Virus genome (UHGV): UHGV-0134778
DNA: 64,000 nt
Source of the DNA: a virus
Direction: 5' to 3' (one strand)
The notes below the pieces were generated by a model. It did no database searches. It had not been told where the DNA came from and saw only the letters and a list, made by a program, of their open reading frames with translations. Shown here one piece after another: positions 4,823 to 35,656 of this stretch. A program made the position numbers and the translations under genes. How positions within the stretch are numbered: the stretch's first letter is position 1; the number at the start of each line of letters is the position of its first letter.

Positions 4823-5359
4823 ATGCTTCTGATTAACTGGGAAGACCTCTATGGGGACAAAGACCCTGTTGCGTTTGTTGATCGTAGGTGGAGGTACACT
4901 GAAGAACAACTGGCTGCAAAAAATTTAACTGCAAAACGCAGAAAGATCATCCAGTGCAAGTACAAATACGCACAGTTTGCTGCAAAAGTGTCTCCACAAA
5001 TCGAGAGTTTTGTACTTAAATTGTATGACGAGTACCTCAAATTCAAATTGGATTTTGTACAGGTATACCGTGCACAGGTACGTCCAGATACCAACATCTG
5101 TAGATGGAAGGTTGTTTGTGATGGTAAAGATTTGCCGCTCAGTTTGACAATTGAGTGGCGTTGGGGGTATCATGAGTGCGGTTTGTATGATATTTGGGAT
5201 GTCATTGTAGATCCTGCTAAGTACCTGAACACAGAGGAGCTGGAATATATCAATAAGGTTATTCTAGATATGTTTTTCAGCTACACCCATGAAAACTCTG
5301 AGAAAGAACGGGATAATTTTCTTGACACCCTCGGCAACCACCTGCAGTGTACAATTTAA
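4823..5359 (+). CDS. hypothetical protein
   Basis: ATG 4823 after GGAGGAG; the track alternative is GTG 4814. Confidence 0.5.
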   Translation: MLLINWEDLYGDKDPVAFVDRRWRYTEEQLAAKNLTAKRRKIIQCKYKYAQFAAKVSPQIESFVLKLYDEYLKFKLDFVQVYRAQVRPDTNICRWKVVCDGKDLPLSLTIEWRWGYHECGLYDIWDVIVDPAKYLNTEELEYINKVILDMFFSYTHENSEKERDNFLDTLGNHLQCTI

Positions 5360-9338: not shown

Positions 9339-9400
9339 TTGACACAACACTTGATCTTTAGTATCATTATTTTCAAAGAGGGTTTGGTTCCCTCTTCTTT
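9339..9400 (+). promoter_or_regulatory. sigma70-type promoter with hairpin at the predicted transcript 5' end (hpf leader)
   Basis: TTGACA (9339-9344), 17 nt, TATCAT (9362-9367); hairpin AGAGGG-TTTGGTT-CCCTCT at 9377-9395 followed by TCTTT, then RBS AAGGAG. Confidence 0.55.
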
Positions 9401-9870: not shown

Positions 9871-10140
9871 ATGAAAATTAAATTATTCAAAACTGAGCTG
9901 GCAGACAAAAACTGCGGACTGGTTGAAGGCATGATCGTTGAAGCACAACCAGTTGACTACATGAAGGTGGTTCGTGATGCCCTGGGTGAAGGTTTTGATC
10001 TGATGGAGCCAGCTCTGCGAGAAGATGTCATCGAGATGGCTAAAAAGCACACACCGGAAGGTTTGGTAGTGTTTGTTGCACCAGGTAACGGGGAAGAGTT
10101 GATTGTAACTCCGGATGTGTATGAGGTTGTAGAAGAGTAA
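9871..10140 (+). CDS. small acidic protein, EVVEE-tail paralogue family
   Basis: MKIKLFK... ending ...YEVVEE; RBS GAGGAG. Confidence 0.5.
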   Translation: MKIKLFKTELADKNCGLVEGMIVEAQPVDYMKVVRDALGEGFDLMEPALREDVIEMAKKHTPEGLVVFVAPGNGEELIVTPDVYEVVEE

Positions 10141-10232
10141 TCCTGCTTGGGTTGGAATACTTTCCTCGACAAGAAAGGTTTATAATTATTTGTGGGAAAG
10201 GAATCCCCATCTCTTACCAGAGGTGATACTAT

Positions 10233-10496
10233 ATGATTGTTTATTTTAAAACTTCAGGTGGATACCCTGATTCTCAAAGCTTGATTGGAAAAACGTGCAC
10301 AGCATACTCACCTCTTGATGAGGAGGTAAGTGGTATCCTACGAGATATGTATCGGATTGATCCACAAGAAGCTTTTGATCAAAACCTTGTATTTGTCAAG
10401 GGATCAGACATAAAGTCTTTGGGGGCATTCCCTGAAGCAGATGATGATGCTGTTTATTCGTTTATGACACCTTTTGAAGCTATGGTTGTGGGGTAA
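10233..10496 (+). CDS. small acidic protein related to the EVVEE family
   Basis: ...LVFVKGSDIKSLGA... core resembles 8142 and 8359. Confidence 0.5.
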   Translation: MIVYFKTSGGYPDSQSLIGKTCTAYSPLDEEVSGILRDMYRIDPQEAFDQNLVFVKGSDIKSLGAFPEADDDAVYSFMTPFEAMVVG

Positions 10497-10500
10497 GAAT

Positions 10501-10833
10501 ATGAAAGTACGCTTTATTGGTGAAACAATTCCTGTGCATCTCCGGTCTCCTGAAGACTCTGCAGATCTTGCATCTCAAAAGGCGAGAGGGTATGATAAGA
10601 AAGTGATCTCAAGCAATGTAGAGCTTGAGGCCACCAGTCTGCCTGACCCAGCTGCATTCTTCAATCATTATGGCTACTATTTTAGCAATCTGATGAATAT
10701 TGGTGAGCTTGTGTTTATTAGTGGTGGAGAGATAGTTAGCAAGCTTGGTGGAGATCCGGATATCTTTCATGAAACCTGTCCTTTTGCATTTGTGGTGGGT
10801 TCAGATGTGGAAGTTATTGAGGAGGTTCGGTAA
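10501..10833 (+). CDS. small acidic protein, EVVEE-tail paralogue family
   Basis: MKVRFIG... with LVFISGGEIVSKLG core and C-terminal VGSDVEVIEEVR. The track ORF from 10474 overlaps the previous gene. Confidence 0.5.
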   Translation: MKVRFIGETIPVHLRSPEDSADLASQKARGYDKKVISSNVELEATSLPDPAAFFNHYGYYFSNLMNIGELVFISGGEIVSKLGGDPDIFHETCPFAFVVGSDVEVIEEVR

Positions 10834-11228
10834 TGGTAAGTCTATACCGTGTTGAGTATAGCTCGGATACTGTATACAACGTAAGAAGCAAAGATCGCAG
10901 TGATAGAGTGCAAGAAATGTATGTTCTTGCAGATAGTCCGTTATCTGCAGCGTTCAAGGCAGGAGCTCTTGCATCTCGTTGGAAATTTGAGGGTGGATCT
11001 TTCTATGAAGAAACCCTCGAAGATTCTGTTGTTATTTCTTCTGTAGAGGTTTCAACCGACTACGAAGGGAAAAAGTTCGTAATGCGGCACCCACACAGCA
11101 ACATTGCGTACTACTGGGATGTTCTGAACAATGAGTGGACACCTGATCTTCAGAAGGCCACTGTTCTAACCCCATTCCTGGCAGATAAGTTCCCACCAGA
11201 AGGTAATTTATCTGCACTGTTTCAGTAA
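10833..11228 (+). CDS. hypothetical protein, paralogue of 8626..9024
   Basis: 131 aa; shares the HP..YW....WTP block with 8626..9024. Confidence 0.5.
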   Translation: MVSLYRVEYSSDTVYNVRSKDRSDRVQEMYVLADSPLSAAFKAGALASRWKFEGGSFYEETLEDSVVISSVEVSTDYEGKKFVMRHPHSNIAYYWDVLNNEWTPDLQKATVLTPFLADKFPPEGNLSALFQ

Positions 11229-11239
11229 TTTTATGCCAC

Positions 11240-11275
11240 ACAGGTGTTGACAACACCAACCCTGTGTGCAATAAT
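11240..11275 (+). promoter_or_regulatory. sigma70-type promoter overlapped by nested palindromes (candidate operator)
   Basis: TTGACA (11247-11252), 17 nt, AATAAT (11270-11275). CACAGG/CCTGTG and GGTGTT/AACACC inverted repeats are centred on the -35. Confidence 0.5.
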
Positions 11276-11304
11276 ACCTTCATCTTAACAAGATAGGAGA
11301 CCGA

Positions 11305-11565
11305 TTGATGAAGATTAAATTGAAAAACCTTGAAACGGCAGAGATTCAGGAAGGTGTTGATTTCCGTTCTAAAGATGGAGACATCCTAGAGGCGAATGTC
11401 CCGACATATAAGTTGATTAAAGGTTTTGGCAACGTTCCGGAGGAGGATATTACAGACATTCTTATGATGTTGATCCTTGACGGGACTGTGTTTGTAGGTG
11501 AAGGTGAGAACGCTATTGCAATCCCGAGCCATTTTTATGAAGTAGTTGACGAAGAGGTGCTGTAA
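11305..11565 (+). CDS. small acidic protein, EVVEE-tail paralogue family
   Basis: MMKIKLKNL... ending ...YEVVDEEVL; preceded by the palindromic promoter at 11240-11275. Confidence 0.5.
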   Translation: MMKIKLKNLETAEIQEGVDFRSKDGDILEANVPTYKLIKGFGNVPEEDITDILMMLILDGTVFVGEGENAIAIPSHFYEVVDEEVL

Positions 11566-11916
11566 ATGAAAGTAGAGATCACAGGTTTTGATATGAATGC
11601 GGTTCCGGAAGATATTTTAGCTAAACTCCCGGAAGGTTTTGGTAACGGTGTTGTGGTTGATGCTGTTCCTCCTACCAAAGACATCCTGCTGCAGTATGGT
11701 GTGGCAGAGGAAGATGTTGATAAAGTTCTTACAATGATGGCAATCGACCGTGTTGTCGTTGTTAAAGGTCTTGAAGGTTTTGATAACGATCCTCTGATTA
11801 TTCGTGGTGATGACTATCGTATCATCGACAACGAAGGTCAGGGGTTCTACGAACCTTCTGCTGAAGATGTTCTTAACTTACTACTGGAAGCAGGTACCGT
11901 AGAGGAGGCAGAATAA
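11566..11916 (+). CDS. small acidic protein related to the EVVEE family
   Basis: MKVEITGF... ending ...GTVEEAE; start adjacent to upstream stop. Confidence 0.5.
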   Translation: MKVEITGFDMNAVPEDILAKLPEGFGNGVVVDAVPPTKDILLQYGVAEEDVDKVLTMMAIDRVVVVKGLEGFDNDPLIIRGDDYRIIDNEGQGFYEPSAEDVLNLLLEAGTVEEAE

Positions 11917-12245
11917 TGAAAATTGATCCGTTACTGAAGGCTCGTGCAGAAAAAGCATACACTATTAAGCTGACCTCTCTGGTTCCTACTTGTCATCCAG
12001 ATGTAGGTTGGCCTGAAGGTCTGGTAGAGGGGACTGTAACAGCCGCATATCTCCCTAACATCAAATACCTCATGGAGATCTTGGAGATGGATGAGGAAAC
12101 GGCAGAACAGTTCCAGTTAGACATGAAGCAAAGTGGGACTCTGGTTATTCACGGGTGGTATAATACTAAAGATGCAGAAGATCCCCTGGTAACTTCTAAT
12201 CTGGCATATGAGATCTTAGGGCCTTTGAACTTGGGGGAAGACTAA
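11916..12245 (+). CDS. hypothetical protein
   Basis: 109 aa; ATGA coupling. Confidence 0.5.
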   Translation: MKIDPLLKARAEKAYTIKLTSLVPTCHPDVGWPEGLVEGTVTAAYLPNIKYLMEILEMDEETAEQFQLDMKQSGTLVIHGWYNTKDAEDPLVTSNLAYEILGPLNLGED

Positions 12246-12532
12246 TGAAAGATTTGGTTAAGATCAAGATTAAAGACACCAATGGAGAACTCAGCCATTT
12301 TGGAATTAACGATGGTGACGAGCTGATCGCCCACCTGCCTACCAAGGAAGTTGTAAGCAAAGCGGTTGCCGGAGAAGAAGATGCAATGCAGGCTGCAGGT
12401 GTGGATGAAAACTATGTAGCAATGTGTATGTGCCGAGATCAGGTTGTTCTGTATAAAGCGTATCGACCAAATGGAGCACCTGAGTGGCTTGTTTTCCGAC
12501 CCGAAGGATATGAAATTTTAGAGACGCTATGA
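12245..12532 (+). CDS. hypothetical protein
   Basis: 95 aa; ATGA coupling. Confidence 0.5.
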   Translation: MKDLVKIKIKDTNGELSHFGINDGDELIAHLPTKEVVSKAVAGEEDAMQAAGVDENYVAMCMCRDQVVLYKAYRPNGAPEWLVFRPEGYEILETL

Positions 12533-12612
12533 TAAATCTTGCCAAGGTTGCAACGGCACTGTTAATTATTTGCTGGATAGTGACCTTGGCACTATGTCTT
12601 GTATTTCATTAA
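12529..12612 (+). CDS. micro-protein, hydrophobic (27 aa)
   Basis: ATG overlaps the upstream stop; ALLIICWIVTLALCLVF is one transmembrane-length segment. Confidence 0.25.
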   Translation: MINLAKVATALLIICWIVTLALCLVFH

Positions 12613-12621
12613 GGGGGCTGT

Positions 12622-12885
12622 ATGAACATCTTGGTGTGGGTTGTAGCAGTAGCGTTTGTTGCGTGCCTCTCTTGTTGGGTTGCTGTGAGGATTTCTATAG
12701 CCACTCTTCGGAAATTAGGGTTCTCAGAGTGGGATATTAATATCCTTTCTTTTCGCAATGAGACAATCTCAGCCGCCCTGCTGTGTAAGAAGTTTAAGTG
12801 GGAACCTTGTGAGGTCATGAACTATCTAAGAACAGGAGATATTCCTGAGAGATTTAAAAAAGTTCTTGACGGCAAAGACAAATGA
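12622..12885 (+). CDS. membrane-anchored hypothetical protein
   Basis: N-terminal ILVWVVAVAFVACLSCWVAV; RBS AAGGGGG. Confidence 0.45.
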   Translation: MNILVWVVAVAFVACLSCWVAVRISIATLRKLGFSEWDINILSFRNETISAALLCKKFKWEPCEVMNYLRTGDIPERFKKVLDGKDK

Positions 12886-12913
12886 TAGTATAGTGACTAA
12901 CAAGAGGTGAGGA

Positions 12914-13054
12914 ATGACTGATTTTACTGAAGCTTTAATGATGGCCTTATCTGTTTTAGCGCTATCGGTGTGTTTTGGGGCGTTATTCACATCTCTGGTT
13001 AAAGTTTTACATACCATATTCTCACCCAAGGAGCACAGTAATGACGAAGATTGA
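12914..13054 (+). CDS. micro-protein, hydrophobic (46 aa)
   Basis: ATG 12914 after AGAGGTGAGG; MMALSVLALSVCFGALF is a membrane segment. Confidence 0.3.
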   Translation: MTDFTEALMMALSVLALSVCFGALFTSLVKVLHTIFSPKEHSNDED

Positions 13055-15378: not shown

Positions 15379-16671
15379 TAAGTTCTTCTCTTTTCTTTTA
15401 CCGAGTAATTCGGGTTTTCTGTTCTCTTCGGTTTGAAGGGGTATGGAGATACACCTGAGTGAACAGGGTGAACAACCGAACCTTTAGCTATGGCATTAGC
15501 ATGGCGAAGCGGACGGGTGACGAAAGAGGGGCCGGAGGACACCAGTCACTGCCATATAGTATATGGGTGATAACCTGAAGAGTCTGAATAAGTGTTTAAG
15601 TACCAGTCAGAGGAAAAGGTGAATGGTAGCCGAAGGGGGAGGGGGGTTTCTTATATCTTTAATTTGTATACTTTATATACACTTGTAAACCAATTCAATT
15701 AGGATCTGTTTACCACACAAAGTGGATGGAGACAAATATCACCTATTAAACTTGAATTATTTATAGAAAATACCACAACACTACTTAAGTCTTTGATTTT
15801 ACACACAAATCCTACAGATACTCACCCTCCATATTTAACATACTTGTAACATATCCCATACTCTACCTGTCTGATCAATTTACCCAACTACATCCCCATA
15901 TTTTTCCTGTCTGTACTACCCCTGCCCCGCCGGGAGTCCCGTCATATCTGGCTTCCCAGCAAATATCACACCCACAAATATCATTGCCTGAAGAGGGTTT
16001 CATCCCATAATACACACCTTGCCTGAAGAGCGATTCATACACCAACTAAATTTTTTAATTGACCCCTCCCCGCCGCCGGAGAGGTTGGCTTTTCCCACAC
16101 AGGCCTGAAGAGTCAGCCAGAAATATCTGAACAGGCCCAGTTATACCACGATTTTGACATGACCGACAGGAGTGCTACCCTGTCAGGAGCCGGTAGCGAC
16201 TGGAGTGCTGCCAGGCGGACGAAATGGGAATACTTCTCATTCTTATAACAATTCTCAAATATCGAGGCAGTGAGGCAAATTAATAGGTGAGGCCGTTCAC
16301 ACAGTGGCACAACATTTGCAACCTATCTTGTGGGGTGAATGAGAATACCTATCATTGTGAGAATAGTTATCATTACGGGCAATTTAACATAATACCCATT
16401 ATGCGCACCACTGGCGATACATACAGGGATTGATAACATGGGTTACTGTTTACGCACATAACAATTATATTTCTTACTATTTGTGCGGGATATAGTTAGC
16501 AACCAATAGATTAGATATTGACCTGCGGACTTCTGACCGTCCAGACGTCTAAACGCCCACACAACAAGGGTTATACATACATTCCTGAATGTAAACAGGG
16601 CCGCAAAAATGCTACCATACCAGTTTGTAAATTTTTCATGCAGCACTTGACAAAGAGGAGAAAAACTTGTC

Positions 16672-16720
16672 TGACACTTTTGCCACTTTTGACACTTTTA
16701 CCTTTGACACAATATGACAC
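16672..16720. repeat. cluster of four TGACAC boxes
   Basis: TGACAC at 16672, 16690, 16705 and 16715, embedded in repeated CACTTTTGACAC words. Confidence 0.5.
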
Positions 16721-16750
16721 AATAACGGCTGTTACTATTCCATATCTCAC

Positions 16751-16805
16751 TGTTTACGCATAGACTGTTTACGCCTGAATAGTTTACGCCCAAACTGTTT
16801 ACACA
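16751..16805. repeat. four iteron-like direct repeats (C/A)TGTTTAC(G/A)C at 14-16 bp spacing
   Basis: TGTTTACGC at 16751 and 16767, AGTTTACGC at 16781, TGTTTACAC at 16797. Further copies of CTGTTTACG at 16446 and 17267, and inverted at about 16590. Confidence 0.6.
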
Positions 16806-16815
16806 GAGATGATGA

Positions 16816-17109
16816 GCCATGCCATTCGTTTGCATGAAAACAATTAACAAGATAACAATTAACAAGTTAATAATCTTTCGCTGGCTATGCCAGGTGACTA
16901 GGTCACCCCTTCGGGCGTTTATATGACATAATATAAAAGCAGGGCAACTATTAGAAGATCTATAGTTGCCTTGCTTGTTATGTCATGATTAACTAAATAC
17001 AAGGCAACTATGATCTGAGTAATAGATTGCAGAAAAACTATCACGGGGGTGATGGTTACTGCTTTTATATTATGTCGCGACTCCGTCGCGCCATGCCATT
17101 CGTTTGCAT
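16816..17109. repeat. 20-bp direct repeat pair flanking a nested inverted-repeat structure
   Basis: GCCATGCCATTCGTTTGCAT at 16816-16835 and 17090-17109. Inside: 18-bp perfect inverted repeat GACATAATATAAAAGCAG (16926-16943 / 17059-17076) and four copies of GGCAACTAT/ATAGTTGCC. Confidence 0.65.
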
Positions 17110-17722
17110 AGTTGCCTTATTGTTACAGGTAAAATAATTACATTATTAATTATTTCTTATCTTTCTCTTAGTCATCTAATGATTCCAGTCAGTATAGTAA
17201 TGTACAGTAAACATTAGACGACTAAAGATTTCTCTGTTTATGATAACTCATCGTGATAATTTCGGGCTGTTTACGAAAAATGTTGACACCTGAGCTGATT
17301 TATGTTATGCAGTCTACACGAATAATTATTTTATGCAGGTATTGACTATTCCGTTATTCTGTGGTTGGAATAAATACTTTGCAGGCTATAGAATGGCGTG
17401 CGTACGTGAATTCTGAGATCTGGCGGCTATAGTTATACTCGATTTTTCGCGTAGAACACGCTTTAGATGCTGTGTAAGTGTATGACTTATAAAGATTTTT
17501 AGTTGTTGACAAGATATTGGAGATGTGCATCAGGTTAAAATTTGTGCAATAGCGGCATTACGTGCACTTTTGGGAGAGAAAACGGGTAAAAATGGACTTG
17601 CTACCACACAATGAAAAATTATGCAATAGTTATTTTCCATGTATATTTGTACAGTATGTGGGATTGATGGCTAGTCAATTATTCCACTTGCCAGGTAGGG
17701 CCGTTTATGGTAGGAGAAGAGC

Positions 17723-17750
17723 AGACAAAAAGAAAGGGGCCTAAGCCCCT
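17723..17750 (-). terminator. intrinsic terminator closing the leftward gene block
   Basis: Minus strand AGGGGC-TTAG-GCCCCT followed by TTCTTTTTGTCT; lies 20 nt past the stop of 17770..18189. Confidence 0.7.
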
Positions 17751-17769
17751 TGATAATTCAGTTAAAAAA

Positions 17770-18189
17770 TTATAATGATTCGTATATTTCAAAAATCCGA
17801 TTTGCCAGGTCGTTACGGTAGCTGAATTTTTCCTCACGTTTGATCATAAGATCTTTATAGCCGTACTCTTTAAGCACTTCATTAACTTTATGGCGGCATA
17901 CTTTCATATTATCCTGCGCGTCACCAATAAATCTGTTGCTATGGTGCATGGCTTTAATTTCTTCTTCCAGGACCAGGGCAACTATGCGGACCGGATCAAG
18001 CTGATAGGCGGTAACATCCATGCGGCATTGTAAACGGCTTTTTACGTCTGCCACCGGATATACTGCAACCTCTTCCCCGTCAACATTGACAATAATTAGT
18101 TTACCATCGATTTCGAATCCTTTCGCCGCCGGACCGTGACAAAAAGCGTTATCAAAGCTATATGCCGGATTATTAGATTTAATGTTCAT
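17770..18189 (-). CDS. hypothetical protein
   Basis: 139 aa. First gene upstream of the minus-strand terminator at 17723-17750; promoter 18239-18267 and RBS AAGAGG upstream. Confidence 0.55.
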   Translation of the reverse strand: MNIKSNNPAYSFDNAFCHGPAAKGFEIDGKLIIVNVDGEEVAVYPVADVKSRLQCRMDVTAYQLDPVRIVALVLEEEIKAMHHSNRFIGDAQDNMKVCRHKVNEVLKEYGYKDLMIKREEKFSYRNDLANRIFEIYESL

Positions 18190-18238: not shown

Positions 18239-18267
18239 AATATAGCAAAACTGCCGATCCCTGTCAA
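18239..18267 (-). promoter_or_regulatory. sigma70-type promoter
   Basis: Minus strand TTGACA (plus 18262-18267), 17 nt, TATATT (plus 18239-18244). Confidence 0.55.
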
Positions 18268-18930: not shown

Positions 18931-18984
18931 AGTGTTTTCCTCTCTCCTGGTTGTTGTGTGGGCACTTTTGCCCCTTCAAGATAA

Positions 18985-20767: not shown

Positions 20768-20816
20768 GATTTTTTATCCTCTTTGTGGTTGGTGGGGCTT
20801 GTTGCCCCCTTTGATT

Positions 20817-24279: not shown

Positions 24280-24298
24280 GGCGGGAAGTTTTCCCGCC
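24280..24298 (-). promoter_or_regulatory. leader hairpin, GGCGGGAA...TTCCCGCC family
   Basis: Perfect 8-bp stem with 3-nt loop between promoter 24309-24336 and the RBS of 23628..24251. Related hairpins at 26144-26160 and 26825-26843. Confidence 0.45.
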
Positions 24299-26120: not shown

Positions 26121-26171
26121 GGCGTTTTCTCCTTTTGTGTGTTCTGGGAAGTTTTCCCGTTTACGTGTTTA

Positions 26172-26805: not shown

Positions 26806-26887
26806 GATCTTTTTCCTTTGTGTTGGCGGGAAACATTCCCGCCTTTTGTGACTAGTTTACTTGAATTTTGCAGCGTGTCAACAATTT

Positions 26888-35259: not shown

Positions 35260-35290
35260 TGCTGTGGTCCCCTTTCGTTTTGATAGGGCC

Positions 35291-35319
35291 ATCATATTAG
35301 GCCCTATCGCTGTTGTCAA
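35291..35319 (-). promoter_or_regulatory. sigma70-type promoter overlapped by a 9-bp-arm palindrome
   Basis: Minus strand TTGACA (35314-35319), 17 nt, TATGAT (35291-35296); GATAGGGCC...GGCCCTATC spans the spacer and -10. Confidence 0.5.
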
Positions 35320-35627: not shown

Positions 35628-35656
35628 ATCTTACATCTACCCCAACTTGTTGTCAA
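35628..35656 (-). promoter_or_regulatory. sigma70-type promoter
   Basis: Minus strand TTGACA (35651-35656), 17 nt, TAAGAT (35628-35633). Confidence 0.55.

Follow-up and report, generated by a model that had tools for sequence, protein, structure and literature searches.

At the predicted early promoter P150 of an rV5-like phage genome, the -35 box sits at the tip of a conserved 12-bp hairpin, which describes the site better than a palindrome does. Our preferred reading, put forward tentatively, is that stem-loop and early promoter form a composite element similar to the promoter-early stem-loop (PeSL) cassettes of T4-like phages, and that the stem-loop would act on RNA reading through from upstream. 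All coordinates refer to the whole stretch of viral DNA analysed, 64,000 nt long and called the window throughout.

Bases 10000-13000 of the window match 119 phage records at 92-99% identity, and all matching records with a taxonomy belong to Vequintavirus, the rV5-like myoviruses of E. coli. The closest of these records is ECP26, at 99.1% identity. Judged by these matches, the window is a Vequintavirus (rV5-like) genome. Around the site, small early genes of unknown function form a co-oriented run; the features of the site are as follows:

10833-11228, + strand: upstream gene, homologue of rV5 ORF149, 131 aa, no Pfam match
11237-11249, + strand: 5' arm of the stem, CACACAGG-t-GTTG, with T11245 bulged; its final three bases are the TTG of the -35 box
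11243-11257, + strand: inner palindrome GGTGTTG-A-CAACACC, a perfect 15 nt (7-1-7) in the window, imperfect in Murica-type relatives and phiWec189
11247-11252, + strand: predicted -35 hexamer TTGACA, 6/6 matches, invariant in all relatives
11250-11256, + strand: hairpin loop ACAACAC; its opening three bases are the ACA of the -35 box; A11255G in Murica-type relatives
11257-11268, + strand: 3' arm of the stem, CAAC-CCTGTGTG, within the promoter spacer; its final two bases are the TG of the extended -10
11270-11275, + strand: predicted -10 hexamer AATAAT, 5/6 matches with A2 and T6 present, preceded by TGc, invariant in all relatives
11295-11299, + strand: Shine-Dalgarno sequence AGGAG, 8 nt before ATG 11308; ribosome-binding site annotated in Murica
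11308-11565, + strand: downstream gene, homologue of rV5 ORF150, 85 aa, pI 4.2, no Pfam match

The ORF149 homologue ends in a TAA stop at 11226-11228, and the stem begins 9 nt later. The first-pass annotation had placed the downstream gene at 11305; relatives annotate its start at ATG 11308 rather than at TTG 11305. Both flanking genes encode hypothetical proteins restricted to the genus. The ORF150 homologue heads a run of small acidic-protein genes that extends to a terminator at ~13631, and the proteins encoded downstream of the promoter are acidic (pI 4-5), except for one basic predicted membrane protein. A Pfam scan of 11 flanking and downstream proteins found no domain other than S30AE/HPF in the ORF144 homologue. 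The upstream transcription unit consists of promoter P144, at 9339, followed by ORF144 to ORF149, and a scan listed no terminator-like sites between P144 and the P150 site. A search of Rfam yielded no family in 10800-11700 with E values of up to 1, nor anywhere in the window when the gathering score was applied. As a separate observation, the small acidic proteins encoded across 9871-12532 (pI 4.0-4.9, no Pfam match) have common N-terminal MKIKL/MKVEI motifs and C-terminal acidic tails such as YEVVEE, YEVVDEEVL and YEILETL, and are probably paralogues.

The prediction of a promoter at this site, made in the first-pass annotation, was borne out by the sequence. In the promoter scan, TTGACA (11247-11252) and AATAAT (11270-11275) together matched the consensus at 11 of 12 positions; they are separated by 17 nt, and an extended -10 TG is present at 11267-11268. 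The site thereby shows what is expected of a sigma-70 promoter, namely a -35 match, a -10 match at 17-nt spacing, and a position and orientation suited to a downstream gene, the promoter being located 26 nt upstream of the Shine-Dalgarno/ATG of a co-oriented gene. Judging from the promoter boxes, transcription would start at about A11282. The rV5 GenBank record labels the orthologous site 'Sigma70-type promoter; P150' (DQ832317.1, 100027-100055), and the record of phage Gotham likewise has a promoter annotated there. Promoters in rV5 were predicted by consensus search, without experiment (Kropinski et al. 2013, PMC3606486). From CACACAGG through AATAAT, the window is identical to rV5 P150 except for C11269A. 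The known annotation differs from the present description in being a consensus match only: neither the rV5 paper (PMC3606486) nor the GenBank record mentions an inverted repeat or regulation at P150. The literature search found no Vequintavirus transcriptome or transcript data. Taken together, the sequence predicts a strong, near-consensus sigma-70 early promoter with an extended -10, already annotated as P150.

The 30-mer CACAGGTGTTGACAACACCAACCCTGTGTG quoted in the first-pass annotation has a single exact match in the window, at 11239-11268 on the + strand; the interval of the first-pass annotation, 11240-11275, covers the element through the -10 box. That annotation described nested palindromes with a shared centre on the -35 box, with GGTGTT and AACACC as arms immediately around it. 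The observation is real and the arms are present, but two parts of the description do not hold. Firstly, the hexamer is not flanked by the arms: the perfect 15-nt palindrome contains TTGACA. Secondly, the centre is not shared, since the inner palindrome is centred on A11250 and the outer arms, CACACAGG (11237-11244) and CCTGTGTG (11261-11268), on 11252.5. The two dyads are thus offset by 2.5 bp rather than concentric, and both need G11243/G11244. The centres of the outer half-sites are 24 bp apart, which is 2.3 helical turns.

The best fold of the region combines parts of both repeats into one hairpin, CACACAGG-t-GTTG (ACAACAC) CAAC-CCTGTGTG, with 12 pairs, one bulge and a 7-nt loop. As RNA, this hairpin has a folding energy of -18.5 kcal/mol (z = -4.1), and none of 200 shuffled sequences was equally stable; as DNA, the corresponding values are -11.2 kcal/mol and z = -3.7. 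In our reading, the -35 box is at the tip because this is the most compact packing, and the stem occupies the positions upstream of the -35 box and in the spacer because those would be free of promoter constraint. The stem is followed by CAAUAAUACCUU / CAATAATACCTT, which has no U-tract and does not resemble a terminator tail. Because the stem runs into CAAUAAUACCUU, without a U-tract, the hairpin failed the canonical intrinsic-terminator criteria, and a terminator scan of the window did not list it.

Hairpins of this kind are seldom produced by chance. When TTGACA was kept fixed and its flanks were shuffled, a hairpin of -18.3 kcal/mol or lower tipped on the hexamer arose in about 1e-4 of the trials, for an expectation of ~0.004 such hairpins over the 36 promoter-like sites of the window. 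Three promoter-like sites carry a hairpin of -15.8 kcal/mol or lower, as compared to 0.025 expected from shuffled flanks. Among the 92 TTGACA sites of the window, the three most stable -35-centred hairpins are all found at promoter-like sites. The P150 hairpin ranks within the top ~0.3% when all 45-nt windows of both strands are compared, and no other + strand fold listed for such windows between 9.0 and 13.6 kb is as stable.

The counts against shuffled flanks and the ranking among TTGACA sites speak against the main rival explanation, according to which P150 is a plain strong promoter whose repeat arises from the self-complementarity of TTGACAA plus chance and has been carried along in a young, closely related genus. 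We regard this explanation as unlikely, but it has several observations in its favor. TTGACAA is itself a self-complementary 7-nt palindrome, so that some of the inner repeat needs no further explanation, and the form gTTGACAa is seen at many rV5 promoters. The absence of a U-tract also fits a promoter with nothing added. Compared to real non-promoter TTGACA sites, the excess of -35-tipped hairpins is marginal, with p ~0.03-0.3 depending on a post hoc cut-off. More specifically, at preset cut-offs promoter-like sites showed no hairpin excess over other TTGACA sites (p >= 0.28), and a post hoc cut-off gave 3/36 vs 0/56 in the window and 3/56 vs 0/123 in rV5 (p ~0.03-0.06). Hairpins are not generally enriched at the promoters of this genome: a hairpin with z < -2 is found at 4 of the 25 annotated rV5 promoters, which does not differ significantly from the 6.7% of background windows, and the best hairpin from -45 to +75 was no more stable at the 36 promoter-like sites than at 300 random sites (p = 0.29).

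Over the 54-nt region, identity to the 119 GenBank relatives is 90-100% throughout, and the relatives fall into a few discrete mismatch classes. For a comparison of individual positions, 14 of these records were fetched, which collapse to 10 haplotypes; a short-query blastn and pattern scans of IMG/VR and JGI metagenomes added no haplotype. The fold is retained in each of the 10 haplotypes, with energies between -14.6 and -19.6 kcal/mol. Variable columns make up 4 of 32 inside the element, as against 41% of third codon positions in the flanking genes, and the edges of conservation are sharp: 4 of the 8 columns directly upstream of the stem vary, and so does position 11269 directly after it. 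Stem and spacer positions outside the hexamers, which a plain promoter would leave free, vary in only 5 of 27 columns, again compared to 41% of synonymous positions and 4 of 8 columns directly upstream. Furthermore, 3 of the 4 stem substitutions preserve pairing, which likewise argues against a repeat carried along by chance. C11237T, C11241T and C11261T each result in a G·U pair on the sense strand, and G11246A (in phiWec189) breaks one pair. Because the single substitutions are wobble-compatible on the sense strand only, they point to RNA as the form in which the hairpin would act.

Other aspects of the comparison agree with a plain promoter. The neighbouring 5' UTR is as conserved as the element (4 of 32 columns variable), and the comparison set is one closely related genus with only 10 haplotypes. 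Among these there are no compensatory double changes at the P150 stem, 8 of the 12 pairs being invariant. Double changes number zero in the bulged-stem model and in the nested model of the first-pass annotation alike, so that the variation, with G·U pairs allowed, cannot separate the two. A tblastn search with ORF149 returned only the same 119 Vequintavirus records, all at >= 95% protein identity; the gene has no relatives outside the genus, and a deeper comparison is therefore impossible. The substitution A11255G, present in 4 of the 14 fetched relatives (the Murica-type haplotype and phiWec189), falls in the loop of the 12-bp hairpin, yet it breaks the inner palindrome as a DNA dyad.

Elsewhere in the window, two promoter-like sites likewise carry their -35 box on a hairpin tip, and their stems are unrelated to that of P150:

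18253-18278, - strand: P164 hairpin GCTATCCCTG-GTTGA-CAGGGATCGGC at the early promoter P164 of rV5, with the -35 box in the loop and a 7+3-bp stem
5134-5159, + strand: promoter-like hairpin GCCGCTCAGTT-TGAC-AATTGAGTGGC, inside the ORF128 homologue, with no promoter annotation in rV5

The second of these places TTGACA-18-TATCAT at the tip of an 11-bp hairpin of -16.3 kcal/mol. At P164, the stem reads CCTTG/CAAGG in rV5 and JES2013 vs CCCTG/CAGGG in the window, so that a T-A pair in the former corresponds to a C-G pair in the latter, which makes one fully compensated pair. The same stem has a wobble change in phage naam and a mismatch in Pr121LW, and the covariation count at P164 was not significant in a shuffle control. 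In phiWec181, a Phapecoctavirus and a member of a different subfamily, a re-registered 7+3-bp stem of -20.1 kcal/mol surrounds TTGACA. The P164 hairpin is followed by the T-rich AGTTTTGCTATATTCTTTTT, resembling a terminator tail, whereas the CAATAATACCTT of P150 does not. Some other promoters of the window bear GGCGGGAA..TTCCCGCC-type stems at +3 to +21. Hairpins that enclose the -10 box of strong promoters were also observed, at 35282-35308 (- strand) and at the promoters with a -35 box starting at 35656 and 24646 (both - strand); one example is GATAGGGCC-TAATATGAT-GGCCCTATC, at -17.6 kcal/mol.

The unrelated stems tipped by a -35 box at 18267 (- strand) and 5144 (+ strand) fit a nucleic-acid structure better than a sequence-specific protein. 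They bear on the view taken in the first-pass annotation, that symmetric sequence centred on a -35 box is the typical footprint of a dimeric repressor or activator. According to this explanation, a symmetric dimer, either a phage or a host regulator, would occupy the palindrome that covers the -35 box and either block RNA polymerase or recruit it. Repressor operators that overlap -35 boxes are well known, for example lambda OR/OL and LexA boxes, and both the size of the 7-1-7 palindrome and its position over the -35 box are typical of operators. P150 is similar to lambda OR/OL and LexA-type operators in having ~15 bp of dyad-symmetric DNA over the -35 box, perfect in the window; the element is conserved, and rV5 encodes at least one helix-turn-helix protein, ORF79, outside the window. 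This small protein matches HTH_36 and DUF6945 just below the Pfam cut-offs.

Against an operator, the element is present in a single copy. The first-pass annotation had suggested a search for the same palindrome elsewhere; no other copy was found in the window, and the rV5 genome, searched over its full 137,947 bp with as many as 7 of 30 positions allowed to mismatch, has only the one at P150. Half-site matches in the rV5 genome are at chance level. Neither recurrence at other promoters nor a regulator gene nearby was found, the proteins of the adjacent genes being acidic and without Pfam match, and the other promoters with a stem at the same position bear different sequences, one of them with the compensated pair. 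P150 further differs from lambda OR/OL and LexA-type operators in having two non-coincident dyads and in that common natural variants break its symmetry: the inner 7-1-7 repeat qualifies as a single dyad in the window and is broken by A11255G in the Murica-type haplotype and phiWec189, and the outer arms, with half-site centres 24 bp apart, are off its axis. None of the CRP, FNR, LexA, GalR, FadR and DeoR operators is known to fit the repeat in orientation or spacing. Nothing ties a regulator to the P150 site; the idea of a dimeric regulator is unsupported, and we consider it improbable. As an observation in its own right, the promoter of ORF79, the only annotated helix-turn-helix protein (L016 15693-15722; rV5 P76, outside the window), has its spacer filled by a perfect palindrome, AGCAGGGA-GTAA-TCCCTGCT, followed by ATTTT.

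The preferred reading, a composite of stem-loop and early promoter, draws on the PeSL cassettes described in the T4-like phages RB49/phi1, PST and nt-1 (Arbiol et al. 2010 PMC2839356; Comeau et al. 2014 PMC4122927). In these cassettes, a near-consensus TTGACA-N17-TATAAT promoter is combined with a stem-loop that may be located upstream or downstream of the promoter boxes, between them, or overlapping either the -35 or the -10 box (PMC2839356; PMC4122927), a stem-loop over the -35 box being one of the five subclasses described (PMC2839356). PeSLs lie between small orphan genes and were proposed to be sites of recombination and module exchange, linked to mini-circles; in a lacZ reporter, one PeSL stem-loop lowered expression to an extent comparable with a very strong terminator (PMC2839356). 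Similarly, P150 joins a predicted strong sigma-70-like early promoter to a stable stem-loop overlapping the -35 box. It, too, separates small orphan genes, with a stop codon close upstream and a Shine-Dalgarno/ATG downstream. As to the association of PeSLs with gene replacement, a single case was observed at P150. In phiWec189, the neighbouring gene is replaced by an ORF150 allele of 52% identity with boundaries at ~11276-11300 and ~11535, that is, with the left junction at the cassette, directly after the P150 -10 box, and the right one near the 3' end of the gene; the flanking DNA is ~80-100% identical, mostly above 90%.

A number of differences accompany these similarities. P150 occurs in another phage lineage (Vequintavirinae) rather than a T4-like myovirus; its stem is unique in the 137,947-bp rV5 genome instead of a repeated Gn-loop-Cn, only the promoter hexamers recurring; the AT-rich tract upstream of its -35 box is only ~10 nt; and hairpins show no overall enrichment at the promoters of this genome. 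P150 also has no U-tract, and any terminator activity or mini-circles at this site would be putative. Among the systems described, PeSL promoter/stem-loop cassettes are the closest to the P150 site, which by this analogy is best described as PeSL-like rather than as a proven member of the family. The other comparison class consists of intrinsic (rho-independent) terminators and intercistronic 3'-stabiliser hairpins. P150 resembles these in presenting a 12-bp G+C-containing stem-loop right after a stop codon on the sense strand of an operon, and differs in having no U-tract after the stem. The P150 hairpin would therefore be, at most, an attenuator, a pause site or a 3'-exonuclease barrier.

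Under the composite stem-loop and promoter reading, host RNA polymerase with sigma-70 would start at ~11282 from TTGACA-17-TGcAATAAT, and the transcript would cover ORF150 as well as the small acidic-protein genes that follow. The inverted repeat around the -35 box would be an RNA hairpin rather than a protein site, and the 12-bp hairpin would form in read-through RNA from the P144 unit (ORF144-ORF149). It may then pause or attenuate the read-through. Alternatively, after cleavage in the A/U-rich -10 region, the hairpin may cap and stabilise the 3' end of the upstream message. In either role, expression from ORF150 onward would depend mainly on P150. The analysis establishes the sequence, the fold and its rarity, its retention in relatives, the single copy and the parallel cases; promoter activity, an action of the hairpin in RNA and its effect there are inferred.

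Six early promoters of the window carry another kind of hairpin, a Gn-loop-Cn structure whose spacing is constant, the tip following the first base of the -35 box by 46-47 nt:

9376-9396, + strand: Gn-loop-Cn promoter hairpin
26825-26843, 26146-26158, 24280-24298, 20794-20808 and 18954-18979, - strand: Gn-loop-Cn promoter hairpins

These hairpins fall at the predicted 5' end of the transcript, and two of the six are near-identical (GGCGGGAAAACTTCCCGCC and GGCGGGAATGTTTCCCGCC). This six-promoter unit looks more like the classical RB49-type PeSLs than P150 does. In addition, the early orphan ORFs 167, 205, 206, 209, 210 and 231 of rV5 are annotated as similar to genes of RB49, the phage in which PeSLs were first described, which hints at early gene cassettes having been exchanged between the two lineages.

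At the level of DNA, the repeat could instead form a cruciform or single-stranded hairpin. It could then act as a switch that responds to supercoiling and abolishes the duplex -35 box, or it could be a hot spot of recombination at which modules are exchanged. We hold this explanation to be very unlikely. The DNA fold (-11.2 kcal/mol, z = -3.7) and the phiWec189 mosaic boundary directly after the promoter are consistent with it, but a 12-bp bulged arm with a 7-nt loop is short for cruciform extrusion, and there is only a single mosaic junction, gene-boundary mosaicism being common in phages. The unique stem sequence provides no homology with other sites, and the substitutions are wobble-compatible on the sense strand only. 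Its recombination variant would parallel the PeSLs, which were proposed as recombination sites and linked to mini-circles (PMC2839356). We give just as little credence to the idea that the -35-in-loop hairpins (P150, P164 and the 5144 site, with the P164 counterpart in Phapecoctavirus) constitute a distinct, protein-free promoter switch, in which the hairpin, extruded by read-through or by negative supercoiling, would do away with the duplex -35 box, so that upstream transcription silences or insulates the internal early promoter, the same cassettes being module exchange points across phage subfamilies.

If the stem-loop is functional, as the composite reading supposes, promoter/stem-loop cassettes, so far described in T4-like phages, would extend beyond these to rV5-like phages, many of which were isolated for biocontrol of O157 and other E. 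coli. A functional stem-loop would also explain in simple terms how small early genes, arranged in runs, come to be expressed as insulated units and exchanged among relatives. If only the promoter matters, the site is ordinary and already annotated. In neither case is a new regulator indicated.

At ~15400-17900 of the window (rV5 104013-106618), an ORF-free 'non-coding' block is found where the two transcription directions converge. No Rfam family was found in this block, which contains the strongest hairpins of the window, at 16933-16977 (-24.3 kcal/mol) and 16061-16105 (-19.5 kcal/mol).
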